Positions 3,682-62,806 of a stretch of DNA of 64,000 nucleotides are shown here, in pieces; position 1 is the stretch's first letter; each line of letters starts with the position of its first letter. The notes below the pieces were generated by a model. That model was given only the letters and a program-made list of their open reading frames with translations. It was not told the DNA's origin and did no database searches. The stretch lies in assembly GCA_044892525.1 (NCBI GenBank), contig CM097887.1, forward strand, positions 7,812,001 through 7,876,000. Reading direction: 5' to 3'. The DNA comes from Schmidtea polychroa. Lineage: Eukaryota. The position numbers were made by a program, and so were the translations under genes.

Positions 3682-4047
3682 TCACGCTGGTTGCTTGCGG
3701 GGCCTCCATCTCTTTCGTGGAGTTGTCTCGGCTTCTTCGAGTTCCTCCAGGGATACTCCCTCCCTCTTGGCCCGAATTTGCAATTCGATTTTTCTAAGCC
3801 GGACCTGAGCGGCTTCCACATCACTGGCCGCTTGATCGCGAGCCTCTTGCAACGTGTTGTTTTCCGGCTCCGTTTTTACCCACGCCGGGGCATCTGGTTC
3901 TGGGCCCTTCCGGATCACTCGATTTGTGCAATCCAGGTCCCGTCCCTGGCTCCACCGATGGATGTGGTACCAAATGTACCGGGTACGGAGTCGAGTGATC
4001 ATTTGCTGGTTGGTTTCCTCGTCGCTGCTATAGTTTGATTGGGACAT
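3682..4047 (-). CDS. Unknown family A protein (121 aa from the ATG at 4047); helical, C-terminal basic NLS-like motif
   Basis: GC-rich open frame; RLRTRYIWYHIHRW matches RLRSRWIWYKIHDW at 63234-63692; ends PRKRWRPRK; acceptor ctgcAG lies 2 nt before the ATG. Confidence 0.65.
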   Translation of the reverse strand: MSQSNYSSDEETNQQMITRLRTRYIWYHIHRWSQGRDLDCTNRVIRKGPEPDAPAWVKTEPENNTLQEARDQAASDVEAAQVRLRKIELQIRAKREGVSLEELEEAETTPRKRWRPRKQPA

Positions 4048-5636
4048 ACCTGCAGTATAACTATTAAGATCGAGCATAACCCATGTGACTTATACATTGA
4101 TGTCACAATAGAACATGTGGACACAATACTTTAGCTACTGGATTTATGATAATTAATCCTAATGCTGCTAACCTACAATTTGGATTTGATTTATCAATAT
4201 ATTCTTAATTAACTACTAGACTCATTATAATTAGCACTAATACTGCTAACCTAAAATTTGGGTTTCATACTTTATGATTTTATATTTATAATTTTGTACT
4301 CTACCTTTTTTGAGCTTCTAGTCAGCTTTACATGACTTTTTATGAGTTACTTCTATGGGATCATCTTAGTTATCCAAAATGCTTTCGGTTTTGTTGGTAA
4401 CTACTCATAAATTATATTTCCTGAAGTTCTACATTTATATTTAATTAGTTATAAAAAATTTTATACACAAAATTTATAATTTCTAATCGGGATTTACTAT
4501 TCATAAACTATATTTCCTGAAGTTCACATTAGTTATAAAAATTTCTATAAACCAAATCTAGAATTTTAATCGGGATTTATCCATTAATGATTTACATCAA
4601 TATAATTATATCTAAGATCATATAGTTATTTATATAAATTATGACTAAGTCTTTATACATTCATGAATATTTTAAAGTGGGAATTCGAAATTTAACCTTT
4701 CGGATTTAGAACATCTATATTTACATTGAATTAACCTATCTAGATTGAGTTATACTTATAAGTATGCCGAATATCTCTCTTATTTCTATTACTTTATCAT
4801 AAACTCCTATTACAAAATCTAATTCGGCATATGTCTAGGTATAACTGAGATTGCTATTACTGATCAACCAACTACATGAGTGTGAGTGCAGAATTGTGTA
4901 AGTTTAGGTATGAGTTCTACTCGGATTAAGACCTTAGTGTAGAGATGTTGTTCATGATTTTAAATGTTGATTTTAATTGTGTATTAAGCAAAAGGCCGGG
5001 AAGAATATTGCTTCCATGGCCTCACTGTGACCACTTCGACAAACCTTAATGTTATATGCTAAGTCAACCATTTACGGCTGACCTTTAATAAATACGAAAG
5101 TCAGACGGAGGGTTTCCTCGACCTAACTCCATGGCCGGACCATGAAGTAGTTCGACCTCCGAAGGACCCGAACAAAAAGATTCATATAATATGCGATCAT
5201 TATAATATTAATAATGCATGTCTGCATGTCCTATAAATTTTAATAAATTGGATGTAGGACTGAACAACGACGCAGGAATACCAGTACGCCGTTGAACATT
5301 CGTACATCACTTAAAAAAAAATAAAATTAAGAAACATCAAAATATGAAATTACTTTAATCTCAACATAGATAAATCGTAACTACAAAATAAAAAATTTAA
5401 TCATAGGTACTCACTGTTTATGTTAGAAAGGTTTCGTTCAAAATTTGGCATAAAAGATTGATTTGTGACCGAAACGTGTCGGTATATATACCTATTTTGT
5501 ACACGTGTGGAGCCAGGGACGTTTGTTTATAAGAATAGAAAAATCAGTTATTAATAAAATCATTAAAAATAATAAAGAAAACATAAGAAAAGAATAAAAA
5601 AGAGAAAAAATGATTAAAAATACAATAATACAACCG

Positions 5637-8536: not shown

Positions 8537-9298
8537 TTAGTTAAAGTTTTCTCCGTCGGCAATTATCTCATCGATATCTACAGGTAATCTACAATCTGAG
8601 ATAAACTTGATGCCATTAGCCGGAATGATACGGAAAACTTCTTTCGAGGGAATCGAATGAGTGGTGGATATCTCTGCTATTTTCGTCTGCGCTGCAAACA
8701 AAGAAGCTTCGAGCGCCTTCATTGCATTTCTTCGTTTCTTAGTCTTCTCGGCCCTGGTTGGGTGTTTACGTTTGCGGGGTGGCGGATTCCCTCCAACAGC
8801 GGTAGAGACTGTGGGTGCCACTAGAATCGGGGCCAGAATTGGGTCAGATGGACCGCCTTTCATAGGTGAGTATCCTGACAGCACTGGGGCTGGGATGGGC
8901 GGTAGATGTGAACCGTGCCCTTGACATGTTATAGTAGGAGTTGTAGATAACTGATGATGGAGAGGAAAGACATTCGATCCATCCAATACGGGATGTTCGC
9001 GTACCCGCTTTGCTATTTCTGCCTCCGTGTAGACCTTATGGAGGGCTTCTGATTGTGCTTTTATTGTGAGCCTTTGGCATCGGCTTTCTTCCAGTAGGCT
9101 GTCCCTACAGTGCTCTAACCTGAGGATCTTAGCCTTTTCCTCCTTCATCTGTGGCGGGGAGAACCACGTTCCTTCATACAGATCTATCCTCTTCTTGAGG
9201 GCCCCTATATATAAATGAAGTTGAGCGATGTCCGAATTCTTGTCAGCGCAAGAGAAACACGGACGAAGTTCTTTGACTTTATTGGATGGTGCTGTCAT
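8537..9298 (-). CDS. Unknown family B protein (253 aa): CxxC, coiled coil, EGTWF motif, Pro-rich linker, NLS-like motif
   Basis: Intact GC-rich ORF; LRPCFSCADKN, YEGTWFSPPQMKE, HCRDSLLEESR and PPPRKRKHP; homologues at 13159, 48915 and 62345; acceptor ttttctAG directly before the ATG. Confidence 0.75.
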   Translation of the reverse strand: MTAPSNKVKELRPCFSCADKNSDIAQLHLYIGALKKRIDLYEGTWFSPPQMKEEKAKILRLEHCRDSLLEESRCQRLTIKAQSEALHKVYTEAEIAKRVREHPVLDGSNVFPLHHQLSTTPTITCQGHGSHLPPIPAPVLSGYSPMKGGPSDPILAPILVAPTVSTAVGGNPPPRKRKHPTRAEKTKKRRNAMKALEASLFAAQTKIAEISTTHSIPSKEVFRIIPANGIKFISDCRLPVDIDEIIADGENFN

Positions 9299-13689: not shown

Positions 13690-14979
13690 CCATACGCATG
13701 GAATCTATATTATGGAAATTGAATGAATGAATCTAATAAATCTATTATATTGTAATGACTTATGAGGGCGTATTTCTGGGTTGTGTAGTTATCAATGTTC
13801 TTAAATATATTTATTTGAATAAATGTTGAGTAACGTAGAGATGGTAGTCCAGTTTTCTTAATGTTCTCTGTGGTGTGGTTAAATCGGGTAAGAGTGTGAT
13901 GACGTATGGGTTGTTAGAAGATGGAAGGATGTTAAAAACTTTGAAGCTCAAATACTACATAATAGGAACAAATAGGTACAGAGTAAATGTACATGTGGAC
14001 AATGGTCAATGATGATGGTATCTATGCGATGAAAAGAATAAACATTATTGTGATAACTTATTATTAACAATTTGATTTATACTAATTTATTCTTGATGAC
14101 ATTATAATAAATTTGTATTGTTGTTATTGTGATCGTTATTATTATTATTGTTTGGTNNNNNNNNNNNNNNNNNNNNNNNNNNNNNNNNNNNNNNNNNNNN
14201 NNNNNNNNNNNNNNNNNNNNNNNNNNNNNNNNNNNNNNNNNNNNNNNNNNNNNNNNNNNNNNNNNNNNNNNNNNNNNNNNNNNNNNNNNTTGTTATTATT
14301 ATAATTATTAATATAATTATTTCAATTATTTGGTTTATTCTTGTGCACTAAGTGCATTCAATCAAAAACGTTTATTTTGTGCAATAAGTGCACTAGAAAA
14401 ATTTAATTTTTTTGAAAAAAATAAAAATCAAAAAAAATAATTTATTCTTTGTAATTCAACATATTTAACAAACTTATAGCTCAAAATTTCCGTGTTGTCT
14501 CTCGTTTGTTTTTTGCTATTTATTATTTTAAATGACCTTTTGACCAGTCATGGACATTATCGATTTTTTGATATTCTATAGAAACTTCAAATTTGTAATA
14601 ATTGAATGTATTTTTAACATTATATATTGTGATTTTTGGAATTGAGTAAAAAAATTAATTATATTAAATTATCGATTGTGCACAGTGCAAAGTGTGTAAT
14701 TTGCAGTAAATACCGTTTTCGGTAATAAAACTATACAAATGATTATATTGATTTTAGCTGTTATTTTCGAGTAATTTATTACGTTATAACCACTTAGAAA
14801 ATTTTTAGAAGTGGAATGTCAACAGGGATTTCATATATAAGTCGACTGATTTCTCAGTCAAACCACCCAAAAAATAAGAGTTTCTAAGAAGAATTTTTCA
14901 AATTCAGAAATTGATATTGCAATATAATTTAGAGCATACCTATTTTACACATCCGAACTCATAAGAAAAATAACAAAAA

Positions 14980-15390
14980 TTAATATTTATTTAAATATTT
15001 AAATAACATATACAATAAAACAACTCCTGGTGTTAGTTTAATATAAGTTTTCATTTTTCTTTTGATTTCATAAGTTTCTTTAGCATTGCGGGCGAGTTGA
15101 TTGAGTGTATCCCATCTGCCATTAGCTTCTATCCATGGACTAAACTTGGATTTGATTATCTAAAAGAAAATAATAATAATAATAATGAATAAAAATAAAT
15201 TTACTTCTAAAGACCACTGATAATAATGTTCTGAGTCATGTTGGCTTTTCACAATGATTATCTTCATGTAGGTGAACCCTATAATAATTCTTGTCCATTT
15301 CATGTCTTCATCGCAGAGACATTGAAATATATTGTTAAAATAAATCTTCTTTGATTCAAGACAATCCATATCAAGCATGTTCTGGTAGTC
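14980..15390 (-). pseudogene. BCL-2 family homologue, copy 1 (5' part degenerate or lost in the N gap)
   Basis: BH1-like FNNIFQCLCDEDMKWTRIIIGFTY, short phase-0 GT-AG intron (~15160-15204), BH2-like PWIEANGRWDTL and hydrophobic tail GVVLLYMLFKYLNKY*. Confidence 0.7.
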
Positions 15391-15669
15391 AATATAAAGT
15401 CAATATTTAAATGGCCATTGTTAATTTTAAATTATTTTATTGTTTATAAATGTATTAATTTAANNNNNNNNNNNNNNNNNNNNNNNNNNNNNNNNNNNNN
15501 NNNNNNNNNNNNNNNNNNNNNNNNNNNNNNNNNNNNNNNNNNNNNNNNNNNNNNNNNNNNNNNNNNNNNNNNNNNNNNNNNNNNNNNNNNNNNNNNNNNC
15601 ATGCACGTGTAATTTAACAAAGATGTTTTTATGTGAGTAGAAGTTACTCACTTAGTAACAATTACTCAT

Positions 15670-16445
15670 CGATGAGTCATATTCAGATAACAAAGAATCG
15701 AGTATATTTCTTATCAATCGGTATTCTGATTGGTTATATATAATCGATGCTTTATATATCTTTTTCAAATGATCGAGGTAATTATTATTTTTTGTAAATT
15801 TTTAATGATTTAAATTTTTTATAATTTAATTTTTTTTTATGATTAATTTTTGATTTTTTATGCAACAAATATTTTATGAAACCAATAAATGAAACCAGTT
15901 TTTATGAAAACAAATTTTATTAAACCAATTTATATGAAGAAATGGGTATGTTTATATTATTATTATAATTATAATTATTATTATTATTATTCTGTATCGA
16001 TATATCCAATAATTTTTGGTTTACCAAAAAAACAAGTTTTTGTTCTAAAAAGTAGATGATGAATCGTGTGATGAGTCTTTGTTTTAAAAATAAATGATTT
16101 GTCTTTGTTTTAAAAAGGATGAGTCATTTAAATTTAAATGTCTTAGTTTAAATATTTGTTAAATGTCTTTGTATTAAAAATGATGAGTCATATGTACTTT
16201 AATTACCTTAATGAATCATCGATGAGTCACCTGGCCTTGTTACTAAATATAGAATAACCCTGACCGAGTTACTAAAAATATAATGAGCTTGATGACTCAT
16301 AGGTGACGTCATCAATGAGTCACATGACATTGGCATAGTTACTATGGTTACCACGGTTGCTACGGATGAGTCATATGTCATGATTTAGTGATGAGTCATC
16401 ACGGGGGGTAGTGCAAAAAATGACGAAAAAACGATGAGTCATGGA
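15670..16445. promoter_or_regulatory. Dense array of AP-1 (TGA[G/C]TCA) sites plus a CRE (TGACGTCA)
   Basis: About nine TGAGTCA/TGACTCA sites, mostly as gatgagtcat, in ~770 bp; one TGACGTCA near 16305. Confidence 0.6.
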
Positions 16446-17022
16446 GCACACTTCCTTCTACTGTAACCCATAATGGTCCAACGAACAAAGATAATGCCCC
16501 GCCTGGTCTTCTGCGCGCATTATCTTCTCCTTGTTCTTTTCAAATTAATCATTGTGTCACGCTAATAGGCCCGAATCTCCTTTCTATTTACTTTTCTCTT
16601 TATTTACTCAGCTTGGGTTTCCTTCCTCTCTCGGGTTCTCTATTGGCTCGGGTTTCCCATAAGCTGGGGTTTCCTATTAGCCAATTAATTAACGTTTTCT
16701 CTTTTCAGACATTTGAATGCTTTTCGACCTTTTCTAACCATTTTCTAATAAATCCCTAATCATCATCTTGTTTACCATTAGCTAATCTATACCTGTCCCG
16801 TTTTCCAAATTCTATTTCTATGATTTTACAATTTATTGATTGATTTGAATAAACACAAAAAAGAGAATTTGTAAAGAGAATCTTTAGAACAGGAACTTCA
16901 GAAATTTTATTGAAAATAGAGCAAAATAAACATCTATGTCCTGATGATATATTAAGAACAGGAACTTCAGGATTTTCTTTGGAAACAGACCAATTAAATG
17001 ACATTTTAGAGAAAATTTGAAT

Positions 17023-17256
17023 TTCCGACCCCCAAATCTGGATAGACGACCCAGTTGCAGCACATAGCCAATATATGTTTGGCAAGAGGATAAATTTGGG
17101 TAGATCCCACAACACTTAAGTTCCGACTCAGGACTCAGACAATACATATTGACCATCATTTGATATAGCAGCCTCATCTTCAAGGTTATCCCAAATAATC
17201 ATGGATTTATCCCTTGAAGCAGAAATATGACTGTTTGAATAGATATTGGTTGCAAT
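17023..17256 (-). pseudogene. RACK1: RACK1 fragment with internal deletion
   Basis: IAT..ISASRDKSMIIW, ISNDGQYVLS..LWDL and PNIYWLCAATGSSIQIW match RACK1 WD1, WD2 and WD6; stops present. Confidence 0.85.
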
Positions 17257-17550
17257 CATTGATTTTGAATAGGCCATGATCACACGACTATTGATTTTCA
17301 TTGTTTCTGGTTTTCATGAAATAAACGCCAACGTACTCTGATAGTCATATAATGTATGGCAACCTTCTTTAGCATATATTTCGATCATGTGTAATCTGAA
17401 CTTTTCATAAGGAGTACCTAATTCCCCAGTTTCTAATTGAATAATTCTTTCCTTCTGTTTGTTGAGTCCAAAGATTGCATATTGAAATCTTTGTTAAATG
17501 TAATTAAGATACTCTTCCACTAAAGAATCACATTTAACACCTGAAGCCAT
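17257..17550 (-). pseudogene. ADF/cofilin pseudogene fused to the RACK1 fragment
   Basis: MASGVKC..FQYAIFGL..TPYEKF..GCHTLYDY..LAFIS*KPETMKINSRVIMAYSK is a typical ADF-H sequence; no introns visible; one frameshift and two stops. Confidence 0.8.
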
Positions 17551-17682
17551 TTTAGCAAAACTTTATATATTTTCTAGAAAAAACCCTCTTTTAAACAACA
17601 TCTACCTCGAACATTCTAAAAAACAATTTTCTACAAAACAAATCAATTAACATTTGCAACGAAATTAAAAACTAGCAATTCT

Positions 17683-17745
17683 TCGCGTCTGAGTACGCAC
17701 ACTACTACGAATATCAGTCTGATAATAACGCATACACAGACGCGA
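17683..17745. repeat. Imperfect hairpin module TCGCGTCTG...CAGACGCGA
   Basis: 9-bp perfect outer stem; related copies at 46265-46319, 45772-45787 and 2471-2484. Confidence 0.7.
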
Positions 17746-18007
17746 TAAAAAACGCGGAAATCGGCTGAAACATTCATTTTTTTTGGATTTCCGGATTCTT
17801 GTCTTTCGCAATTGCTTTTGCCATTTTCTAATACTGCTTTCATCATACTTGCCTTTACTATCAATTCTGTGCATGATCACGCTTTTATTTGTCTTATTTC
17901 TTTACTTACTTTTTATTTAAATTTTCAACCTAAATTTCATTTAAATTTATTTTAATTTACATACCTCAAGAAAAGTATAATATTTAGAAATAACAACATT
18001 AACTTTT

Positions 18008-18576
18008 ATTTGTTACAAATTACATATATTACAACAACTCCCATTTTTCTCTGGCTTGCTCAAATTCTTGAGCGTTTTAAGCAAGTTCAACTAGTATGTG
18101 CCATCCGCTATTGGTATCGATCCATGCGAAAACTNNNNNNNNNNNNNNNNNNNNNNNNNNNNNNNNNNNNNNNNNNNNNNNNNNNNNNNNNNNNNNNNNN
18201 NNNNNNNNNNNNNNNNNNNNNNNNNNNNNNNNNNNNNNNNNNNNNNNNNNNNNNNNNNNNNNNNNNNNNNNNNNNNNNNNNNNNNNNNNNAATAGTGGTC
18301 AGCATCGTATAAACTTTTGTCCATAATAATCTTCATATAGGTAAAACCTATGATTATTATGGCCCACTTCATCTAGTCGTCGAAAAGAATGTCGAAGATA
18401 CTATTGAAATAAAATTTCTTCGTCTCCAGGCATTCCGTATCAAGTATGGTCTGGTAGTCGACATGGCTTCCCTCGATGATTTTCTCAGTTCGTTTAACTA
18501 GGAAACTGAGGCTTTGAGCAATATTCTCATTAACCAAACCTTTTAAGATGCTCTCAGCAAAATTTGATTGTGACAT
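18008..18576 (-). pseudogene. BCL-2 family homologue, copy 2 (spans an N gap)
   Basis: DYQTILDTECLETKKFYFNSIFDILFDD*MKWAIIIIGFTYMKII (BH1-like) and AWIDTNSGWHILVELA* (BH2-like); clearly homologous to copy 1; nonsense codons. Confidence 0.75.
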
Positions 18577-18992
18577 TGTACAATAGTTTTAAATATAATG
18601 TTTTATTTATATTAATACTGGTTTTGATTCTGATTGGTTAATAAAAATGTAAAACATAAGAGATTTGATTCGATACAAAATGAATGCGTTATTGCTACTC
18701 AGTGCAATATGTGTACAAATAATAATTTTAATAATATTAATAATATGAGTAAATCATTGTTAAATTATTGTTTAATAAATATATAGGAGTTAGGAGGGTC
18801 AGTATAACTATTAATTTAGTACTGTGACAAAAACACATAGGGATATATTAGAATAACAAAGAGATTAATGCCATATACGTTACAATTCTCCAAGGAATAA
18901 TTATTTTATTTTGGGGTTTTAAAATGAAAACGACAACTAACAAAATAACTAAATTTCAAAATAATAATTTATTTCGAGGACGAAATTTTTTT

Positions 18993-23215: not shown

Positions 23216-23995
23216 ATGTTGTTCATTTTGTCCTTTATCATATTTCACATTGACTGCTACGGATATCCGCTTGGTGAAGGTGAAGGGATAATTAAATGTG
23301 GAATAAGTGCCTTGGAAAATCGCAAATATTTCATTATATTCAATGAGATTTGCACATTTCCGCTAGCTAATTCTTCGATTTCTAAAGAAGCTTTGCAAAA
23401 TAAAGTTTATAAAAAATTAGAAAACACTATCCTTGTACTTAGAATCGTGTCGGGAGTAAAGGAGGATCCATACAATGCAATGAATTTCATAGAAAATGAC
23501 AATAAAATTGTACAAAATGAAGACAACCTCAAAATTGTAAACTTTAGAAGCATTTTGCTGGATGAATGGAACCATCTGAAGCCGAAATATATGGACCTGA
23601 AAATGGTAGATTATTCTAACAAAGTCATAGGTAAGTTAAGGTTTATTGTAAATGAAACCGATGATTTGATGTCATGGTTCGATAAGTCAAATTGGGTGTA
23701 CTCCTATCCCTGGAATTTAACCTACCTCAAATCTCAAAATTTTGACTATTTCAAACCGTTCTTTATTACTTTGAATTATGGACAATGCCTCACGAGCAAA
23801 AGGGTGATGGGATATATTAAAAAGAATGATAAATGTGTTGGGTCCTGGTCAAATCAAACATCATTTGGCTTACATCAATTGTTGTATGTCATTACTAAAG
23901 GTTCTGAGCCAGGAAATTGGAATGAAGACTCACATCCTTACTGGTATTTGGAGGTGAGCGGCATTTACAATCCAACAATTGCTATCTATTATTAA
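23216..23995 (+). CDS. Intronless putative secreted protein (259 aa), probably a host gene
   Basis: Intact ORF from the ATG at 23216; signal-peptide-like MLFILSFIIFHIDCYG; aromatic/Cys pattern SWF..W..FFI.NYGQC..C..W recalls an unnamed extracellular domain family of invertebrates (from memory, not verified). Confidence 0.7.
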   Translation: MLFILSFIIFHIDCYGYPLGEGEGIIKCGISALENRKYFIIFNEICTFPLANSSISKEALQNKVYKKLENTILVLRIVSGVKEDPYNAMNFIENDNKIVQNEDNLKIVNFRSILLDEWNHLKPKYMDLKMVDYSNKVIGKLRFIVNETDDLMSWFDKSNWVYSYPWNLTYLKSQNFDYFKPFFITLNYGQCLTSKRVMGYIKKNDKCVGSWSNQTSFGLHQLLYVITKGSEPGNWNEDSHPYWYLEVSGIYNPTIAIYY

Positions 23996-26800: not shown

Positions 26801-28099
26801 AAATTACGTCTATTTTACTAAGTAGAGGTATTTTTTGAGGTGGTTCACCTGCCCTTTTATAGATTTTAACAAGAAATAATTTTATTGAAGAAATTTACAA
26901 GATTTTATGAAAATAAAAATCAAAATCGGCTAAATACATTTATTAAACTTTTATCGCCACAATTTTTGTTGTAGTGTATCATTCATTAAGCCTTAATGAT
27001 TAAGGAACAATATCTCTAAAGTGAATAATTAAAAAGACTTAGTTTTATTGTCTTTATTAGTCATGTCTTTGTTAATCATACACTTAATAATCAAAATGTT
27101 TTTTATTAAAATATTTAAAAAATCTGCTTAATATCTTTATTTAATAATACACAGATTATACACGTTAAAATCCAAGAGCAAGTCTTGCACGTTCTATTCA
27201 CCATATTGGAGAAAATATATTATTTTGATCTACTTTAATTCCTTGTAAAGTTAAAGTGTTAAACCAGTTTTGATTCTCTGGGAGAATGATTTCCAGAAAA
27301 GTATAAAATCATAACGGACATTCGAAAATGCAGTTGTAATCGCTTAAATATAGCTATTTATTTTACTAAAAACATTTTTAAGGCATCAATATCCTCATTT
27401 GAGGTAGCCATTAGATGCGGATGTTTGCTTAGTTTCACTGGATTTGTCAACTTGATTTCTATTGGCAAATTTGAAAAAAAAAAGATTTTGTAATTGTGGT
27501 ATAATTGAATTGGATGCAATTAAACTCCAAAATTTATTGGATTTTCTTTTCTTGTTTTTCAGCCATCATTTTCTTGGCCATTTGCAAAGATTCATTTGTG
27601 TGTGTTGCGTCTGCCTTGTTTAAGTTACACTTGTGTTGGATTCACTTTGTTTGCTCTCAAATTTTAATGTTATTTTACTGTTTACATAAAATATTTTAAA
27701 ATAATACTGATTACAGCAGTCATTTTTTCTATTTACTAACAAAAACATTTATATAAACATTTATTGATTATCAACAACACACGAAAAATAATATTTTCGC
27801 AACTACTCTCGCAATAGTTGATTGACATGGATACCAAGCCTATCGATACATGTTTCGCACTCATAAGCACAAATTGATGGATGGTCAATTTGTTGCAAAT
27901 CTTCTTAATTAAAATTTAGATGTTGTTGGAGAATCTATTCCAAATCAATCCCGTTGCGAACATAATTCTGAACCGCAGCACATAAGTTCCGACAAGATTT
28001 TCGGACACAACTCCTTAATTTTACCGAATTATTAACGAATGAGATGTAATCTAAATTTTGAAGCTCTAACACAACAATTTTTCCACTTGAAAAAATATT

Positions 28100-28516
28100 G
28101 ACCCGTATTGGTTATATTTTAAGTATCAAGGCTGGAAATACTTGGTGTTCAAACATGCATTCAGTTTTTTGAGACAATCTATATGGATTAATACATTTTG
28201 TCAAATCAAAGTTCGACAAGCTATAAAATCAATGTTCCAGATGGTAACCTTAATAATTTACAAAGAATTTGATAAAGAATTTTACAAAAGTAAAGTGACA
28301 CAAGTTCTTAATAAAAGAAATCATTATTCTGTACATTCTCAATATAGAACCACTCATGTTGAACGATTTAATAGAACATTGAGAGATAGACTCAAACGAT
28401 TTTTTGTACATCAAGAAATAAAACATGGATTAATGTTTTACAGAAAATCAAACAGTTATAATCATTCACCACATAGAGGTTTAAATAGATTATCAATTCA
28501 TCAAAAATTATGTTGA
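28100..28516 (+). pseudogene. Polinton/Maverick-type retroviral-like integrase core remnant
   Basis: FDKEFYKSKV..YSVHS..HVERFNRTLRDRL..YNHSPHRGL is a c-integrase DDE core pattern; first catalytic region degenerate. Confidence 0.8.
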
Positions 28517-33103: not shown

Positions 33104-36100
33104 TTAGTCCTCATCGGACAAAATAACGTCATCGATATCGATGTCATCTTCTCCAAAATCTTCATTTAATTCTTCCTCATCTTCTCCATCATTTTCTCCA
33201 ACATTTTCTGAAACATTTTCTGCAACAATTTCTCCAACATTTTCTCCAATATTTAATTCACTTAATCTTACATGCCCATATGCAAGACTAGTATTTTGCC
33301 CCACCCAAACCCTTTTGTCATCTTTGTTAGTTAGTGCTATTTTTGTGTTTTTAATTGTAAAAATTTGATGATTTTTGCTTGTTATTTTAGTCTGAGGAAC
33401 CGAAAAAATCTGGTTAGTGTTATAACAATCCAGGTATGACTGATGTTTTATGTCACTACCTTTCAATGTTACACCTTTAGCCTTTTTTGTTTCCTCATCA
33501 CCCAACAAGCTATAACATTTAGGTCTAAGAAAAACCCACTCCTTATATTTAAGACCTTTATTCTCGTCTTTGAACTTTCCAATGACTGAATCAAGGTTCT
33601 TACTATATAAGGAATGACAACTATTGTAATTGGAAGTATCCAATAAATTATCTCGAACCATTGCAGGTAAAAGAACCTCAAGTTTGCAGTTAATGACTTC
33701 GAGGAAAAAAGAATCTGTATCACCTGCAACGATATTAATTTTACAATTAAACTCATTGCGAAATGATTCCAGATCCTTATATTGCAATTCATACATTCTA
33801 AGTTTAGATAGATCAAGTACAGATTGACCAATGTAACTCGGTCTATCTAAACATATAGAATCGGAATTCAATAGTGCTGCAATTAAATTATCTGCTATTT
33901 TAATAGATTTTTTAAAAGTCGGTTTTGACGAATATTTAACTAATTTACCGGCAGTTGTACAAAGACGAAGATTCATTCTTCTCTTTAAATTTTCAACTGT
34001 TTTGCCGTATAAACTATTATTTAGCAATTTATAATAATTTTTATCTAAGCTATTTACGCTTTTTGATCTTAATTCGGTATTTGTATCTATATATTTTTTA
34101 AAAATTGGTGATTGCTTAAATCTTACACCCCTATTTACACGTGTTACTTTAACACCAAGTTCCAAATATAATTTTAATAATCTCCAATGAATAACATAAT
34201 TAGATTTTGGAAGATGAGTTAATAATAATTTTTCAACCTTAGACCCAGCAGGTTTCATTTTTTCAGCAGCTACAGGGAAATGATCCAACTTATCATGAAG
34301 CTCAGAAGGAATTACAAGATCAACTTCAAGTGTGTATCCATAAGACAAAGATTCAAGATTTAAATTCCTACATTCATCCATTATTTTATCAAATCCATCA
34401 AGAACCCAACAAAATTCGCCACAAGGTAATGATTGACTTAAAGCCCAGCCATAAAGATTATTAATATCTATATATAGTAACTCAGTGTTCTCGTCGGTTT
34501 TTACGTAATGCTTATTCACAAAAGTAAGACCGCCTCTTATTCCACCCTCATAAAAGCTAAACATTTCGTTTTCAGTTATGAGTTCAATTGGTTCATTTAA
34601 AGACATTAATGCAGAAGACCAAGACATGCCTGGAATTCCGAAATAATTCAATGGTTCCAATCTATTGTGAGCAATGGATTTCAACCGAAACTGATGAAAG
34701 AAATCAGCCAAAAGAAAACAATCAAGTTTTAGGTAGATCATCATATAATCTAATAAAGTTACGCAATTAGTTTCTACCCAAATCTCCTGAGCTTTTTCAT
34801 ACTCAAGCTCAGTGACACCCTCCCAGATTGGTGGTAATTCATAAGTAGTTTGGAGAATATCTAAAGAAGTGGCGAAATTATAAGGGAAGATTCCTTTTTC
34901 ACTTACTATGGTGCCAGAAAAAGCAGAATTAGTAAAAGGCAAAGAATTCAAAGTTTTGACTGCTTTAGCCAAAGAATCATTGACAAATTGATACGAATCA
35001 ATGAATCTTAGGCTAATTTTACCTAAATGAGCAATCAAAGATATAAATTTTTCCGTAGTTATTGGGATGCACCCTAAATTCCAATTTTTAAATTTATTTA
35101 ATCCATATTTAAGTATATGGTGCATATCGTATCCCTTCAAGTTGTGAAATACGATAGGCAAAATTTTATTTATTTTCCTATTTACGTTACATGTGCTACA
35201 AGCTGCACCCAAGTATTTCCCCGTAAAATGATCGTGATCTCTAACAGGATCGACGATAGATTTCATACAAAGATAACAAACAGATGCACTAACAAATTGA
35301 CGTTGTTCAATTTTTGTTAATTTCATCATAGGTTTCCTACCCATTTTATAATAAAAAGGAAGAACCTTATTTAATGCTATATCCTCTATAGCACTTAAAA
35401 AACTCTCGACGCAATCTAAACCTATGAACTGCTGATAAGATTTAGATCCGTCAAAGTTATTTACAAGTAAAAGACCAGCAGATATTGGCATGTGTCGTTG
35501 GAAATGATCATTATCAGAAGGTAAAATAGCCTCAAAATCTGCATAAACTACAAAAGGAGGAGTTACTGTTTTCGACCAGTCAGTAAACTGTAATAATTTA
35601 TTTTGAGGGAAGGTGTAAAGAGTTGTTCCTAATTGATTACGTTTACATAATATTTCATGTTTTTCTAGTGCGTGTTTATTATTAAACCCATTCAAACACC
35701 GATGGCACCATAATGAACGTATGCGTGTAGGACAACTAGTGTTGATATGACAATTCATTAACTTATTTAAATTACTTATAGCAACGTAATGGAAATTGTT
35801 TCCTTTATTTAATAATAGTAAATTAATTACAGTTCCATTTAAAACTTTGGAACGATGTATAATATCTAAATGTGGGTGTTTTAATACGTAATTATCTATT
35901 AATTGTTTGTTATTGTCATAAGAAAAAACGTTAATTATTAAGCCTGGATTTTTGGCCTCGAATTTTCTAATATCTTTTAATTTCATGGGTAAGTCCAATG
36001 GATTATATATTAATTCAGATAAATTATAACTGGATGTCCTATTTCTAGCATAACTACTAACCTCATCATATTTTAAAATAGCTAAAATGCTATATAAAAA

Positions 36101-37446
36101 ACATGAATCATCGGTGTTTTTTATATTAATTAAACAATATTTATTTTTTAGATAAGTAGGTGTTTCAATGAAACTCCTACCACTTAATCTACTTAGCCTA
36201 CTTATTTTTGTTATGGTGAAATGTATTTCAGTGATATTTTTTATATTCCAACTGCTTCCTAACTCAGTAATATTAGTAATTTTCTCATTTAATTCCTTAA
36301 TGCCTTCATCAAAAAATGATGCAGTTAAAGGCTTTGCATAATTTGAGATATTATTAACCTTTATTTCCCCGTCTTTTTCAAATTCGATTGTTATTCCGAA
36401 TTGAATTTTGACGGAGCCTAATTCGTTAATAATATCTCGTAATTTTTTTATTAGTTGTTCAGGAAATATTATTTCTTTTATATTTAAGTCGCTTGTATTT
36501 AAGCTTAATATTTGATGGGTACCTCTTAGATCTTTTTGTATTATTGGAACATTTCCACCTATTTGTATTATATTTAATCCATCCCAAGAGTCAAGGGAAA
36601 TATTATCTAATCCAACCTGGGATTCAACAACCAATCCATCATGGGATTCGACAACCAATCCATCATTGGATTCCACAAAAGGCAATCCGACCTGGGATTC
36701 AAAAGAAGAAGTATCTAATTTAATTTTTTTATTTTTATTATTTTTTTCTATAGTTGAGGGTCTTTTAAAAACACTATCTTTTTTAAAATTAAACCTATCT
36801 AAATGATTTTTATGTTTATTATAAAAAACGCTATATGTTACGGGGTCACTAGTCTTACATACGGGACATATAAAATAAGTTTTATTATAATATTTTTTCG
36901 TATAATAATTCTCCATTATAGAATGGCAATTATTATCATGTTCTTTCGATGAACAATAATTTGGGTAAAGTATACCTATAAAATAAAAATTTAATAAAAA
37001 AAAATATAATTTAAATGAAATATTTTAGTAAATGTTTACGCAAAAATTTGCAAATTATTATTATTTTACAAATTTTATTTACTAAAAAATAAAAATTTAC
37101 TAAATTAAAAATATTAACATTTACTTAAATAAAAAATTATATTAAATTTCCTTTAAATTATAAAAAGTAATCAATACTTACATTGTAAATTTTCATTTCG
37201 ATTTATTGACACATTGACATAATTTTTTTCTTTATTCGTATTACCTAAATTATTAATTAATTAAATCAATAAATTAAAAATTATGTTTACTTTTTCTTTT
37301 CAAATTTCCTTTAATCTTAGATTTTAAATTGTCTTCATTAATATTATCTAAATTAATTAATAAATTAATTAATAAATAAATTAAAATTTACCAAATTTCT
37401 GAATTTTTTCTCGGACATTCATAACGTTTTCTATTAAAGAATTCAT
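33104..37446 (-). CDS. Protein-primed DNA polymerase B, left copy; join(37446-37392, 37347-37291, 37244-37182, 36975-33104), ~1348 aa
   Basis: ExoI YADFE, ExoII HNLKGYD, ExoIII Y..LD, motif A YIDINNLYG, motif B KLLNNSLYGK, motif C AGDTDS, PKCY; endoVII-like CYLC..RDHDH..CSTC; three GT-AG introns (44, 46, 206 bp) give a 4047-nt stop-free frame. The 5' exons are a manual prediction. Confidence 0.9.
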
Positions 37447-37540: not shown

Positions 37541-38556
37541 ATTCTAACCAATCAAAATCAAGGAAGGGTAGGAAAAATTAATTTATTTTAAAACACATTT
37601 TGACGCTAAAGTTGACTTATTTAACATTTTCATAATAATTTAATAAAAATAATGTGATGAACACACAAAGTAATATCATTTTTCATCAAATTGCAAAACA
37701 GTAATAACGTTTTCATAAAATTGTAACAAAGTAATAACATATTTCAGATAAATTTTCAACAGTTGTAAAATATTTATCAAATTGTAACTAAAATAATAAA
37801 AATATTGCAACAAAGTAATAAAATAATAATGGTAATTAAGACAAATCAATACATTATTTCGAAGACGGACAACAAATTAAAAAGAATATTGTAACTAAAA
37901 TAATAAAAATATTGCAACAAAGTAATAAAATAATACAACATTTTAAACTCTAGATCAATCCATTTTATAGAAAATTAAATTTTATCTATATAATATATGA
38001 ATAAATATCCAAGGAAATTACGTTAACGTATAATAAATACAAATTTATCGTAAAAACATGTGTGTATTACACACAAAACAAGATACATAATTTCTAATCA
38101 ATCCATTTTATAGAAAATTAAATTTTATCTATATATTATATGAATAAAATCCTAAGAAAATTACGTTAACTGTATGAAAAATACAAATTTATCATAAAAA
38201 CATGTGTGTATTACACACAACATACGAGACATAATTTTTAATCAAGCTATTTTATAGAAAATTAAATTTTATCTATATAATATATGAATAAAAATCCAAG
38301 AAAATTACGTTAACCGCGCGAAAAACTACAAATTTATTGTAAAAACATGTGTGCATTACACACAAAGCATCAAACTGAAATTGTAATTGCGCCATGTTGT
38401 AGAGAATTAAATTCTGCCTATACATGGTTACACTTAAATCTCGATCAGACATGTGAAAAGAGACATAAAAGATAAAAAACAGTAGAGTAGTATGATGTGT
38501 CCCCTCCCGGCCATGTCCCCTCCAGATCACATATACCCCCTCCCCCCCCCCCCCCC
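37541..38556 (-). repeat. Left inverted arm (TIR-like), ending in ATATACCCCCT(C)15
   Basis: Reverse complement of 39304-40464 at about 90-95% identity by eye; includes ~133-bp x3 internal repeats and a CCAAT element at the gene-proximal end. Confidence 0.95.
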
Positions 38557-38574
38557 GGGAAAAAAATTTTTTTT

Positions 38575-39150
38575 TTTTTAGAACGATGCCTAATATTTTT
38601 AGAATGATTACGTCATAATTTTAGAACGATGCCTAATATTTTTAGAACTATTACGTAATTTTTTTTTAAATTAAGTGATCCAGCGGGGACCTACTTTTTT
38701 TTCATCCTAAAAATTATTGTTCCCGCCAACAGATTATATTGATCGATAGCTTATTTTAAGGCCCTGTGCGAGATCTATCTAATGAGATATAGATTTTTAT
38801 CATACGATGACTCATCACATTTTTAGAACAAAGACAATGACTCATCACATTTTTAGAATGATGTCTAATATTTTAGAATGATGCCAAATATTTTTAGAAC
38901 GATGCCTAATATTTTTAGAACGATGCCTAATATTTTTAGAACTATTACGTAATCGATGTCTAATATTTTTAGAACGATGCCAAATATTTTTAGAATGGTG
39001 CCTAATATTTTTAGAACGATTACGTCATACTTTTAGAACGATGCCTATTATTTTTAGAATGATGCCTAATATTTTTAGAACTATTACGTAATCAATGCCT
39101 AATATTTTTAGAACGATGCCTAATATTTTTAGAACTATTACGTAATTTTT
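38575..39150 (+). repeat. Minisatellite of a ~21-bp unit (ttttagaacgatgcctaatat) in the inter-arm spacer
   Basis: About 20 copies in two blocks, with ttacgtca/ttacgtaa and gatgactcatc variants; a ~110-bp unique segment is also duplicated (~38665-38780 and ~39148-39260). Confidence 0.9.
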
Positions 39151-39303
39151 TTAAATTAATTGGTCCAGCGGTGACCTACTTTTTTTCTTCCCAAAAGTAA
39201 TGTTTCCATCATCCGAATTTATTAATCAAACACTTATTTTAAAGCCCAGTGCAAAATCTATATACTGATATATAAATATTATTATTAACATTATTTTACA
39301 CAC

Positions 39304-40464
39304 GGGGGGGGGGGAGGGGGTATATGTGGCCGAGCGGGCTCCTGGCCGGGCGGGCCCACATCATACTACTCTACTGTTTTTTATCTTTTATGTCTCTTTT
39401 CACAGGTCTGATCGAGATTTAAGTGTAACCATGTATAGGCAGAATTTAATTCTCTACAACACGGCGCAATTACAATTTCAGTTTGGTGCTTTGTGTGTAA
39501 TGCACACATGTTTTTACAATAAATTTGTATTTTTTCGCGCGGTTAACGTAATTTTCTTGGATTTTTATTCATTTAATATATAGATAAAATTTAATTTTCT
39601 ATAAAATAGCTTGATTAAAAATTATGTCTCGTATGTTGTGTGTAATACACACATGTTTTTACGATAAATTTGTATTTTTCGCGCGGTTAACGTAATTTTC
39701 TTAGGATTTTATTCATATAATATATAGATAAAATTTAATTTTCTATAAAATGGATTGATTAGAAATTATGTATCTTGTTTTGTGTGTAATACACACATGT
39801 TTTATTATACGTTAACGTAATTTCCTTGTATATTTATTCATATATTATAGAGATAAAATTTAATTTTCTATAAAATGGATTGATCTAGAGTTTAAAATGT
39901 TGTATTATTTTATTACTTTGTTGCAATATTTTTATAATCTTATAACAATTTGCTTAAATATTTTACATCTGTTGAAATATTTCCGAAATATGTTATTACT
40001 TTGTTGTAATTTACTGAAAGACTTCACAATTTATTACAATATTCTTTTTTAATTTGTTGTCCGTCTTCGAAATAATGTATTGATTTGTCCCAATTAACAT
40101 CATTATTTTATTACTTTGTTGCAATATTTTTATTATTTTAGTTACAATTTGATAAATATTTTACAACTGTTGAAAATTTATCTGAAATATGTTATTACTT
40201 TGTTACAATTTTATGAAAACGTTATTACTGTTTTGCAATTTGATGAAAAAAAATGATATTACTTTGTGAGTTCAACACATTATTTTTATTAAATTATTAT
40301 GAAAATGTTAAATAAGTCAACTTTAGCGTCAAAATGTGTTTTAAAATTTAAGTTTTAAAATACTGCAATGTAATGCATTTATTTTTCCTACCCCTTCCTT
40401 GATTTTGATTGGTCAGAATATATTTATTTTTCCTACCCCTTCCTTGATTTTGATTGGTCAGAAT
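39304..40464 (+). repeat. Right inverted arm (TIR-like), starting (G)11AGGGGGTATATGTG
   Basis: Mirror of 37541-38556; the CCAAT element ttttcctaccccttccttgattttgattggtcagaat is tandemly duplicated here. Confidence 0.95.
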
Positions 40465-40536: not shown

Positions 40537-41608
40537 AGTGAATAAATTTTTATTCTCTATCTAATATTAATGATTATTTTTTAGTGAACGGATGCAGTTT
40601 ATATAAATTTTGTATTGCCGAAAGTCATGAAGATGTGGAGAACTGTAAATCAGTTACATCATCATATTTCAAGATAAATGACTCTACCTTATCGGGTTAC
40701 ATATGTCCGGAATGTCTCATTATAACACCAGGTAGGTGGTTAATGTTTGTACGACAACACGGACACCATCTTAGAAGATTCGAAGAAACGAAGAGCAGGA
40801 TGATCACTAAAAGTAATACTCTTTCTACTATTAACAATTATTAATTTTTTATAGTACAATCGAAAATGAATACATCATACGATCCTAAGGAGATTAAAGA
40901 ATATGTTACAAGTTATGTTATTTAAGTTGTTTAATATTAATTATAAATATAGTTAGACAAAACTCTGGCACCACAAAACGAAAGTCAATATTTTACGGAA
41001 ATGGAGACTCTAACATACAATTGTGTCCACGTCGGGAGTCTGACTTAAACGGTTCTCGTGTTGAATTGACAAGCGATGTATCTGCAATTAATTCTCCTGA
41101 CATTGTTGTTCCAGATTGTCTCATCAAAGAAATAGAAGATCATATTCAACGAATGGGGACAGTAAAAATCCAATTTGGACTTTGTGCAGAGTTTATCAAA
41201 GAGGATGGTGAAATTAAAAAATGGTGTTTGTCGAATAAAGCAATTACAATGTCATCTTCATTTATTAATGATGGAATTGAAAAATTAAAAGAAAAGTTGG
41301 AGAAATACACTCAACAAAGTAGTGGGTGGAGAATTCATAAAATATTAGAAGTTACTATGATTTTAACTAAATTATCAGACATAATACATGTATCTGGTAA
41401 GATTATTTACATTATTATATATATATAAATCAAGAGATTACTTAGGTTCAAGTTACATTAAAACGCCAAATTACCTGAAAAACTGTCAGGCTTTAGTTAA
41501 TGTTCAAAACAATGATCAATTCTGTTTTTTATATAGCATACTAGCTGTGTTACGTTATGATGATATACGTCGGAATAGAGAAAGAACAACAAAATATAAC
41601 TTAAGTGG

Positions 41609-41671
<63 letters not shown>

Positions 41672-44564
41672 AATGTCATATATCATTGAATTTTGTTTTT
41701 AAGACTTAAAATGGAAATTTGAATGGTTTCCGATGAAGTTGGTTAACATTTGCCAATTTGAAGCAATTAATCCAAATCTAGCGATCAATGTTCTCAAATA
41801 TAATAAAGATCCAATTAAACAAAAAACTAATGATATTTTCAAGAATCCGTTCATTGACTTGGTATATAGAAGTACTTCGACGGGATCTCAGATATATCTC
41901 CTATTGATTGAAGAAGGTAATATTTCCTTTAATCATTAAAAATATTAACTAAATTTAGAATTAAATTATCATTTTTTGGCTGTAACTAATCTCGATCGAC
42001 TGCTGAATTACAGAGATAGAGTAGAAGGAGTCAGAATCCAATCACATTGGTGTCATACGTGTCTTCATGGGTTTCAAAAACGTCCTGCTTTTGAAAGACA
42101 TATAGGTCTTTGTAGGAAGAATGTGGAGCGTACGACTCTATACTCAATGCCAGAGAATAAATATATCGAATTTAAAGATTGGAGTAAAACTATAAAACAG
42201 CAGTTTGTTGTCTACGCGGACTTTGAATCGATATTACCTCTAGATGACAAACACTTCCAAAAACATGAGCCGATTGCATCTGAATTTGTGCTTCTCCATC
42301 AAGGTTGTCCGATCCGAAATGAAACATTTGTTGGGAAAAACTGTATCATTCAGTTCATACAAGCATTGGATGATATAGCTACAGACATAGTTTATCCGTG
42401 GTATAAAATTAATGGATCAAAGGAAATGATGGAACTCACTTGGGAAGAGCAGGAAGAATTCACGACTCAAACTCATTGCTACCTTTGTAAAAAGATTATC
42501 AATATACCCGTTCGAGATCATGATCATTTTACTGGTCAATATCTCGGAGCAGCGTGTCAAGATTGTAATTTGGCTAGAAGAATCAATCCGTCTTTACCTG
42601 TTGTATTTCATAATCTTCGTGGATATGACATTCATCATATATTAAAATATGCAATTGGAAAATTCCCAGATTGGAATTTAATTGTTATTCCTCAATCAAC
42701 AGAAAAGTTTCTCACACTTACAGCGACATCGAAAGGCAGAAGAATTAGATTCATTGATTCTTTACAATTTTTAAATAGCAGCTTGGCAAATTTATCAAAA
42801 AACTTGCCACGTCTTCCACTTACTTCAAAGATTTTCAATTCGCATCTAATAACTGGTAAAGGCATATTTCCTTATGATATTGCTACGTCAATGGATGTTT
42901 TACAGTCAATAACAGAATTACCATCGATTTGGGAGGGAGTTAGTCAAGAAGATTATATACATGCAAATCAAATCTGGCGACAATATAACTGTGAGACACT
43001 GCTAGATTACATGCTAGTATATCTCAAGTTGGATGTTTTTGTGTTGGCCGATGTTTTTGAAGCTTTCAGAGAAAAAACATTTGACGAAGATGGACTTGAG
43101 GCTTTATCGTTTGTTTCCATACCCGGATTAAGTTGGGCATCAGCTATTAAACAGTTACCTGAACCGGTAGAACTTATTCAAGATCCAGAGCTTTACCGTT
43201 TATTTGAAGCTGGTATTCGTGGTGGAATGACATTTATCAACAAACATCATGTTGAAGCTGATGAATCAACACAAATGTCATACCTAGATGTTAATAATTT
43301 ATATGGATGGGCGCTGTCGCAAAAACTTCCTATTGGTGAATTTAGATGGATAAATGATCATACTGAAATGAATGGTATTGTTGAAAGATGTGCAAATGGG
43401 GATGAGTTTGATGGAGATCGTGGATATGTTCTAGAGGTTGACATCGTCATTCCTGATAGTATACAAGATAAGCTAGATGATTTACCTATAGCTCCTGAGC
43501 TTTGTTATCCACCTGGTAGTAAAGTTGAAAAGCTGTTGTTAACTCATGAGCCTAAGAAAAACTATGTAGTTAATGGTAGAGTTTTGACAGAGTGGTTGAG
43601 TTACGGCGCAAAAGTCACAAAAGTTAATCGTGCTGTAGAATTCAAGCAAGTAGCTATTTTCAAACGCTATATTGATTACAATACTCAAATGAGAGCAGCT
43701 AGTACAGATTCATTTCAGCGAGATTATTATAAGTTAAAGAACAACAGTTTATATGGTAAAACCGTGGAAAACCTTAAGAAACGTATAAATTTGAGATTAT
43801 GCAGCAAAAGCAAAAGATTGATAACTTATTGTAGTAATCCTATGTTTCGTCGTAGCATCAAGATTGCGGATGATCTCATTGCTGTTATACTTGATAAGGA
43901 AATGGTGTGTTTAGATAGACCAATGTATATTGGACAAACCGTACTTGATTTATCTAAACTTCGCATGTACCAGTTTCAATATAAAGAACTACAGAGTTAT
44001 AGAGAAGAATTCAATTGTCAAATTAATATCGTAGCCGGTGACACAGATTCCTTCTTTTTAGAGTGTAAAAATGTTGATTTACGCTTACAACTGTATCCAA
44101 AAATGATTGCCGATGGGCTCCTAGATACTTCAAATTATCCGGTGACTGATCCATTGTTCTCAGATAAAATTTGTTCGGTAATCGGGAAATTCAAGGATGA
44201 GAATAAAGGAAATCAATATAAAGAATGGGTGTTTCTTCGACCCAAGTGCTACTCACTCCAAGGAGATAAAAACACTCTAAAAGCCAAAGGAATAAGTCTT
44301 ACAAATTCTAATATCACCCATGAAGCCTATAAAAAAGTGTATACTGATGGTGGAACAGTGAGCATCCAACAAAAGAGAATAGGAAGTGTTAATCATCAGT
44401 TGTATACTTTCATTACTGAAAAACGAGCTCTCCAATGTTTGGATGAAAAAAGGTATTGGTTCAATTCTAATGAAAGCTATGCCTACGGTCACTATAAGAT
44501 TCGTCAAATGCATATCGCAACTGCTCCGTCTACAAATGAATGCAAATCGAAACAAGAACTTTAA
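40537..44564 (+). CDS. Protein-primed DNA polymerase B, right copy; join(40537, 40585-40812, 40855-40911, 40953-41396, 41446-41607, 41704-41916, 41959-44564), ~1236 aa
   Basis: YADFE, HNLRGYD, YLDVNNLYG, KLKNNSLYGK, AGDTDS and PKCY all intact; six GT-AG introns (47, 42, 41, 49, 96, 42 bp) give a 3711-nt frame colinear with the left copy (e.g. restores LLLIEEELNYHFLAVTNL). Confidence 0.9.
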
Positions 44565-62344: not shown

Positions 62345-62806
62345 TCATAGGGTTATAGTCGGTTCTTTCGGTGCAGACTCTGACGAAGTAGCCTTGAGCG
62401 TCGCTTGGGCCTGACAGGCTTGGCGGATTTTCGCCCGCGCCGCTTTACCCGGCCGGATCTTCTTCTTCGGGATCTTCGACGCTGCGCATTCCTTTCGTTG
62501 GTGGAGCAGCTCATCCATAGGCCGGATCCTGGAGATGACCTCTCGATCAAGGTTTTGTTGGTGCGACTGGACTTCTAGCTCTCTCACCCTCAGGCGGAGG
62601 GCCCGCAACTCAACTTGATCTTGGGCGCTCTGGAGTTGCAACTGGGTGATGAGTTTCATTCGCTTCTTCATCTCTGTGGGCGGGAACCAGGTGCCCTCGA
62701 AGTTTCGGCAATGGGCCCTAAGTCGCATTAACTTGGCCCGATACTCTTCTACCTGTTGTTGCGCCCTCTCTCTGTCGGCTCTCATTTCTTCCAGGAGTTT
62801 TATCAC
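62345..62806 (-). CDS. Family B protein, diverged copy (last exon; upstream exon unknown)
   Basis: Open 153-aa frame, coiled coil, NFEGTWFPPTEMKK, basic tail; acceptor atttcAG at 62807-62806. Confidence 0.65.
   Translation of the reverse strand: MIKLLEEMRADRERAQQQVEEYRAKLMRLRAHCRNFEGTWFPPTEMKKRMKLITQLQLQSAQDQVELRALRLRVRELEVQSHQQNLDREVISRIRPMDELLHQRKECAASKIPKKKIRPGKAARAKIRQACQAQATLKATSSESAPKEPTITL

Follow-up and report, generated by a model that had tools for sequence, protein, structure and literature searches.

Dead fragments of a Polinton-borne, two-exon Bcl-2-like gene in the planarian Schmidtea polychroa

Introduction

Bcl-2 proteins govern mitochondrial apoptosis, also in planarians, and many DNA viruses use BH3-binding mimics of them. 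The BH3 motif marks the pro-apoptotic members, which most viral homologues sequester (PMC7022251). Here, we analyze two Bcl-2-like genes, copy 1 and copy 2, in a 64,000-nt stretch of the planarian Schmidtea polychroa (GenBank assembly GCA_044892525.1, contig CM097887.1, positions 7,812,001–7,876,000 of the forward strand; hereafter the window). Both descend from a two-exon Bcl-2-family gene, located near one end of Polinton/Maverick elements, and are dead remnants of it. We consider it likely that the intact gene encodes a tail-anchored pro-survival Bcl-2 protein of ~160 aa, and that it was captured from the host as an intron-free copy that acquired an intron later.

Bcl-2 cargo on Polinton/adintovirus elements has already been published, and the flatworm family adds to it. 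Homologues of Bcl2 and IAP were observed in adintoviruses, with 'Bcl2' labels in the Beta panel of Fig. S2 (PMC8502044, Starrett 2021), so that both the element class and the kind of cargo are the same as in our case. The text and readable supplement of that source contain no flatworm example (0 matches for Schmidtea, Dugesia, Girardia or planaria). An analysis of host donor, intron or selection does not appear in the parts of it consulted here, whereas the planarian gene has a putative intron and a close host paralogue. Our literature search returned no paper whose title or abstract opening describes the planarian gene, and an earlier Repbase entry may exist; 'Bcl' had 0 matches in PMC11071296, PMC8532177 and the Dugesia genome preprint. 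Flatworms join the hosts of Bcl-2-bearing Polintons, an addition of modest importance, with window copies that are dead.

Vertebrate Mavericks (PMC8097293, Barreat and Katzourakis 2021) resemble the planarian elements in size, terminal repeats, 6-bp duplications, core genes and accessory regions flanking the core. In contrast, the available part of that source describes intact elements as intron-free and does not mention Bcl, whereas the planarian elements have an intron in the Bcl-2-like gene and probably in the protease gene too. The ends differ as well, being AGTAG(A/G) in the planarian elements and (AGT)2 or (AG)3 in the vertebrate ones (PMC8097293).

The earlier note on this DNA pointed to a BCL2-like domain of planarian giant retroelements. 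These are the Burro LTR (long terminal repeat) retroelements (PMC6431247), which are likewise planarian mobile elements with a Bcl-2 domain. This lead concerns a different gene, however. The Burro domain is part of a gag-pol polyprotein, whereas the Polinton gene stands alone, is putatively spliced, has its own promoter and lies inside inverted repeats. Burro-type Bcl-2 domains do occur in this genome, in open frames that start gag-like and reach about 3,050 aa, and they pass the Pfam Bcl-2 profile, but they are distant in sequence from the genes studied here. Counts of planarian Bcl-2 genes are consequently inflated by two kinds of mobile cargo.

Adenoviruses, whose linear DNA replicon is also primed by a protein, have a small Bcl-2 protein too, E1B-19K (PMC7022251). 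For an intron-less relative of our gene, the cluster ranked first among the Atlas look-alikes (score 0.93, a weak recognition) has E1B-19K in 20% and Bcl-2 in 16% of its members. Yet, the origin of the element gene looks local, from a planarian host gene, and not common with adenoviruses.

The carrier element

The earlier note had proposed a mobile-element-borne family and had suggested looking for intact copies to find the carrier. This search recovered complete gene-bearing Polintons with target-site duplications and the Bcl-2-like gene inside; copies of the gene are found on each of the four large contigs, and the gene exceeds the Bcl-2 profile cut-off. Five complete elements contain the gene and a sixth lacks it; all have ends of the AG...CT type that begin with AGTAG, and a perfect 6-bp target duplication was found in 6/6. 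Four of the gene-bearing elements, of 16.74–16.87 kb with a mutual identity of 98.5–99.6% and inverted repeats of about 1.3–1.45 kb, belong to family A, the family of copy 1. The fifth, of 17.4 kb, represents family B, the family of copy 2. Only one Polinton end lies in the window (at 16462), and a target duplication cannot be assessed on the window scraps, where the second end is absent.

Family A starts with the repeat, a 166-aa open reading frame (ORF) in reverse orientation, the Bcl-2-like gene, three short reverse ORFs including a 145-aa TBP-like gene, and the ATPase. It continues with a 163-aa ORF, the integrase, a presumed minor capsid gene, a 129-aa ORF, the major capsid gene, the protease, the DNA polymerase PolB and the second repeat. 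The ORFs of families A and B are homologous. Pfam matches in family B include DNA_pol_B_2 (5.6e-27) and Pox_A32 (1e-5), while its integrase match (rve, 2.2e-7) reached 31.5 bits, slightly below the cut-off of 32.6; the family-A protease matches Peptidase_C5 (1.1e-7). The 408-aa candidate for the major capsid protein had no Pfam match. Its Atlas look-alikes scored 0.98, and one of these clusters has PF21738 (DJR-like) in 30% of its members, a lead-grade match which suggests, in agreement with the gene position, a double jelly-roll major capsid protein. The 348-aa ORF between integrase and major capsid had no informative Pfam match either; from its place in the gene order, we presume it to be the minor capsid protein (single jelly-roll).

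Two genes away from the Bcl-2-like gene lies the 145-aa TBP-like gene (L055:5815-6249; Pfam TBP, 1.8e-16). Such stand-alone genes measure 145–154 aa; another example, L014:9409-9870, scores 3.9e-15 against Pfam TBP, and a decayed one is found in the window at 28028-28207. TBP is mentioned for other MELD viruses in figure legends of PMC8502044.

The genome searched measures 781 Mb and has four large contigs. An exact 21-mer covering the splice acceptor and the start of exon 2 had 155 matches and an exact 19-mer from the element end had 542, against 0 for the reversed control in both cases. The genome therefore contains at least 155 copies of the gene and at least 542 element ends. DNA searches with the window copies began from 1004 and 1718 first-look candidates, figures that should not be read as copy numbers; for each copy, 40/40 of the scored candidates matched, spread across all four large contigs, with identities of 88–93% to copy 2 and 94–96% to copy 1.

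In several elements of families B and C, the Bcl-2-like end is present twice, in inverted orientation. Examples of these partly palindromic arrangements are C1:67802505-67820277, C1:142131671-142146570 and C1:203692000-203701500, two of which show 6-bp duplications by eye. One rearranged family-B Polinton contains, between its PolB gene and its capsid block, a frame for a DSPc dual-specificity phosphatase (L030:3583-4344; Pfam, 8e-21). Elsewhere in the window, other Polinton families are represented by two PolB genes, at 33104-36916 (minus strand) and 41039-44564 (plus strand), with 61% and 51% identity to family A. These two genes point away from inverted repeats at 37541-40419, and the frame at 33104-36916 is open for 1270 aa. 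Decayed pieces of orf135, integrase and capsid genes are located at 27168-28492 and 47323-47578.

Membership of the Bcl-2 family

Read through its intron with X, a sibling of copy 1 (95% identity) scored 34.4 bits (E=3.4e-8) against Pfam Bcl-2 (PF00452), which is above the cut-off of 31.4 bits; the genome-wide family search gave 34.5 bits. An intron-less relative also passed, with 32.7 bits. The copy 1 piece at 15205-15396 alone remained below the cut-off (E=0.021, 15.8 bits), and the first 67 aa of copy 2 gave no Pfam Bcl-2 match. In a PDB sequence search with the copy 1 sibling, all 60 listed matches were Bcl-2-family chains (best E 0.008). A homologue search with the family-B exon-1 frame gave five candidates, none of them at E 0.01.

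The stretches F..IF..LFD..MKWTRII and PWI..NGGW align, in this order, to BH1 and BH2 of Bcl-xL. As had been remarked before, BH1 lacks the canonical NWGR. Most open copies have KWTR(II), in which the W and R of NWGR are kept and the N and G are replaced. The BH2 spellings quoted previously (WIEANGRW and WIDTNSGW) are indeed seen in the window but are decayed forms, as open siblings have PWIEDNGGW or PWIDANGGW. The structure models are all-helical. The model of the read-through sibling is poor (pLDDT 63), with a stretched helix 6, while that of the intron-less relative has eight helices and a pLDDT of 82.

Intron and selection

A GT-AG segment of 28–115 nt occurs at one phase-0 place in helix 6 in 16 of the 20 loci scanned, and the frames on both sides are conserved. 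Its length is not a multiple of three at 10 of these 16 loci, and its removal leaves two exons that are collinear with the host gene. The intron site is also where a 104-aa protein of another source (83% identity) ends. These observations suggest that the element gene is spliced. The 45-nt intron of copy 1 (15204-15160) did not figure in the earlier description. One contig from the runs guessed to be RNA had a poly(A)-like tail ~13 nt past the AATAAA signal; a similar tail was present at an unrelated place in the same run, and hence we did not count it. An apparent short GT-AG intron was also noted near the start of a Polinton protease gene (L056:1200-1682).

By simple pairwise counts among four families (six pairs), exon 1 had a pS of 0.71–0.94 versus a pN of 0.13–0.19. 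The dN/dS ratio was 0.04 and 0.07 in the two unsaturated pairs, the other four of the six being saturated, compared with 0.06 for the ATPase, 0.09 for the capsid and 0.18 for the TBP-like gene. Exon 2 rows of locus L018 were out of frame and were excluded from these counts. The ratios indicate that the Bcl-2-like gene is under strong purifying selection between families. Selection on cargo equal to that on capsid and ATPase supports a virus-like life of Polintons. Both exons are open in 12 of the 18 copies scored from 22 regions, a sample biased toward good matches. Between copy 1 and a sibling, dN/dS was 1.3 and 0.7, with few changes; such ratios would be expected for decay after insertion.

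Origin of the gene

The single-copy host gene at locus L044 is 48% identical to the intron-less Polinton version; of the 9 host and Burro sequences compared, it gave the best match to each of the 11 Polinton queries. No Polinton genes were found within 30 kb of L044. An exon of L044 ends at GGW|GT, in BH2, and the exon with the hydrophobic tail lies 3 kb further, as is shown by the full-length relative P0003. The element gene reads through this GGW junction without an intron. In a distant Polinton family (PolB about 65% DNA identity), the gene is intron-less and lies next to the same orf135 and TBP-like genes. The simplest reading is therefore that a processed copy was captured and that a new intron was likely gained later in one lineage. 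An L044-like host gene is the likely donor on grounds of similarity; the tree, in which the clade containing both window copies has a support of 98/95, gives no proof of this. It would be a rare case in which a candidate host donor, as well as the loss and gain of introns, can be traced.

Possibly, though this is doubtful, gene flow was reversed or repeated: L044 might have been domesticated from a Polinton, the gene might have been captured separately, or an ancestral intron might have been lost in some families. The deep nodes of the tree are not settled, L044 and the intron-less families group weakly (81/79) in one tree only, and monophyly of the Polinton genes is neither rejected (p-AU 0.35, approximately unbiased test) nor demonstrated. 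However, an exon break after GGW is also suggested in other host Bcl-2 genes (frames ending GGWV...), and L044 has an orthologue elsewhere (P0003). Moreover, both intron-less and intron-bearing families have the orf135 and TBP-like neighbours, which favors one capture.

Derivation of the window copies from the Burro Bcl2-like domain is very improbable. Burro-type domains that pass Pfam Bcl-2 are present in the same genome, and a clade of Polinton and Burro sequences is left unrejected. Yet, the window pieces are bordered by Polinton sequence, Burro was the best match in 0/11 queries, and the Burro domain lies within a polyprotein and lacks this intron. Capture from a host gene remains our preferred explanation.

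Proposed function

Helix 2 of the element protein contains no BH3-type LxxxGD motif, and a C-terminal hydrophobic 17-mer (Kyte-Doolittle hydropathy, KD, 1.4–1.7) ends in basic residues. Because it lacks its own LxxxGD, has a hydrophobic tail and keeps the W and R of BH1, the protein would be expected to act in the pro-survival direction. It may also be expressed, anchor in membranes and bind host BH3 motifs. On balance, we lean towards a pro-survival action through the groove.

In an active element, the CCAAT/TATA promoter would give rise to a spliced mRNA and a tail-anchored Bcl-2 protein. This protein could blunt the death response to linear replicating DNA, with the host cell surviving during replication. 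The AP-1-rich repeat may tie activation of the element to stress. Planarian Polintons are targets of PIWI-interacting RNAs and are de-silenced during differentiation (PMC8532177).

Several results weigh against a captured, spliced, pro-survival protein. BH1 has T where Bcl-xL has G in 18/18 copies scored (the host paralogue has S there), and T in place of G may narrow the groove. The tail is less hydrophobic than that of the host orthologue (1.8). Foldseek matches were weak (best E 0.012 and 0.07, TM about 0.35–0.49) and none reached E 0.001, although the listed matches all belonged to the Bcl-2 family. VIA gave Z scores of 5.5–6.7, tied with unrelated helical proteins: Bcl-2 family members took 7 of 50 rows for the read-through model, with unrelated helical proteins on top, and 14 of 50 for the intron-less relative, tied at Z 5.5–6.5. 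We sought a contig joining the two exons and found none among the assembled contigs of six runs guessed to be RNA. Finally, grouping of the Polinton genes with L044 is supported by only 56/47, and the p-AU for a Polinton plus Burro clade is 0.38.

An alternative explanation, which we consider unlikely, is that the same carrier encodes a decoy or dominant-negative form of the host paralogue, or a protein with a role in autophagy or innate signaling like some poxvirus and herpesvirus Bcl-2 folds. The substitution of the BH1 glycine would fit such a role, as would the divergence of the clade, whose profile found only two proteins among 1.84 billion representatives. Viral Bcl-2 folds with roles outside the groove are on record (PMC7022251). 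Against this, the protein has retained the W and R of BH1, the WxxxNGGW of BH2 and the C-terminal tail, all of them features of canonical members.

Quite unlikely, in our view, is a more far-reaching scenario in which a host Bcl-2 captured from mRNA and provided with a new intron, now present in hundreds of intact copies 2 kb from AP-1 repeats, would be induced by wounding or stress and would alter how readily cells of regenerating tissue enter apoptosis; Burro, an unrelated giant element, would then have converged on disarming the same host pathway. Planarians take RNA interference and need apoptosis in regeneration, and hence an effect of the element Bcl-2 on cell death can be tested.

The two copies in the window

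A six-frame reading of 14900-15800 and 17900-18700 located the two minus-strand frames with BH1-like, BH2-like and hydrophobic-tail stretches where they had been reported. Each copy region contains a stretch of N, in which the letters are unreadable. The features are listed in Table 1.

Table 1. Features of the two Bcl-2-like copies and the sequence around them (window positions).
Feature	Positions	Strand	Remarks
Copy 1 exon 2, from the end of helix 6 through BH2 and the hydrophobic tail to the stop	14980..15159	-	Frame open, 59 aa
Copy 1 intron, 45 nt, GT...AG, phase 0, (ATT)n-rich	15160..15204	-	Same position in siblings
Copy 1 exon 1 remnant: family-A codons 36-99 (BH1 region)	15205..15396	-	Frame open
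3' end of the adjoining Polinton gene (166-aa ORF, hydrophobic N-terminus), joined to copy 1 by deletion	15397..15463	+	tblastn E=1e-5
Left terminal inverted repeat of a family-A-type Polinton, terminus AGTAG at 16462	15623..16462	-	72-79% identity to repeats of complete elements
AP-1 (TGASTCA) array, 8 sites, within the terminal repeat	16120..16441	.	13 sites per repeat in complete element I
Unrelated filler: ~1-kb repeat (16452-16841 + 17772-17972, contiguous elsewhere), split by a cofilin-WD40 unit (16843-17784)	16452..17972	.	
Family-B Polinton scrap, 815 bp, containing the entire Bcl-2-like gene region	17972..18787	-	87-93% identity to dispersed copies; similarity ends at both borders
Copy 2 exon 2, visible part	17999..18134	-	Gaps of 1 nt near 18127, 25 nt near 18044 and 5 nt near 18012; stop following BH2
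Copy 2 exon 1, visible part	18291..18576	-	Starts with ATG (18576), but codon 68 (18373-18375) is a premature stop
Copy 2 promoter: CCAAT box 18630-18640 + TATAAATA 18604-18611	18604..18640	-	Same arrangement before the gene in complete elements

Both copies are damaged, as the earlier note had suspected. Copy 1 has lost its start codon, its first 35 codons and its promoter, and its similarity to family A stops at ~14960; an AATAAA overlaps the last codons of its exon 2. Through the deletion, codon 36 of the Bcl-2-like gene now directly adjoins the last part of the 166-aa ORF. As such a junction occurs only once in the genome, a family of elements sharing the deletion is ruled out. Copy 2 has stops, a frameshift and gaps; comparison with siblings places the end of its exon 1 and its intron in the N stretch. 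Neither copy can make the protein.

Copy 1 had been described as abutting an AP-1 array. The eight clustered sites exist but are part of the family-A terminal repeat, since the window sequence at 15623-16462 matches this repeat and the repeats of complete element I are AP-1-rich, with 13 sites each. Against the eight sites in 16100-16462, 2000 base shuffles contained 0.05 sites on average and never more than 2. Family-B element F has only one AP-1 site near its left end. Similarly, a CCAAT element had been assigned to each copy. The 64 kb contain just two exact CTGATTGGTTA CCAAT boxes, at 15726 and 18630, but only the latter belongs to the Bcl-2-like gene itself. The box at 15726-15736 matches one internal to the terminal repeat and is not a promoter of copy 1; in complete elements, a second CCAAT plus TATA stands immediately 5' of the Bcl-2-like ATG.

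Over their common exon-1 stretch, the two copies are identical at 36 of 58 residues (~62%). They are not a pair from one element but scraps that stem from two different Polinton families and have two unrelated repeats between them. The 815-bp border of the copy 2 scrap suggested a Helitron or short non-autonomous unit as carrier; this was rejected because siblings share kilobases past the border. The chance that the copies are tandem host paralogues at a fixed locus is virtually nil. They do lie 3 kb apart on the same strand, but each is 90–96% identical to dispersed element copies and shares only ~62% protein identity with the other, and the similarity halts at element-internal borders. Conserved synteny of tandem host paralogues, named in the earlier note as the refuting case, is excluded by these dispersed copies and internal borders.

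Other sequences in the window and genome

The filler between the two copies includes a unit of ~940 bp (window 16843-17784, minus strand; also L089:5125-5715 and L076:1871-2404), in which a cofilin/ADF frame continues in frame into WD40 fragments, presumably RACK1-like. The cofilin/ADF part of a sibling matches Pfam at 6e-11. Of 1096 first-look candidates, 40/40 scored ones matched at 76–91%, and the flanks vary among copies. The unit seems to be a mobile chimera in its own right, built from two host mRNAs.

Among the host Bcl-2 genes, L033-L039 (C4:89.9-90.8 Mb) form a tandem cluster of seven near-identical canonical copies of the NWGR type. Host exons of the Bak/Bax type at L091:9299-9975 have a clear BH3 motif (LASIADTL), and a paralogue lies 19 kb off.

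Two related ORF pairs without Pfam match are found at window 8537-9298, 3682-4077, 62345-62785 and 63234-63692. They are probably another mobile element, and a homologue of 8537-9298 is inserted in a Polinton terminal repeat elsewhere. A 259-aa ORF at 23216-23995 (plus strand), which had no Pfam match, has a hydrophobic N-terminus.

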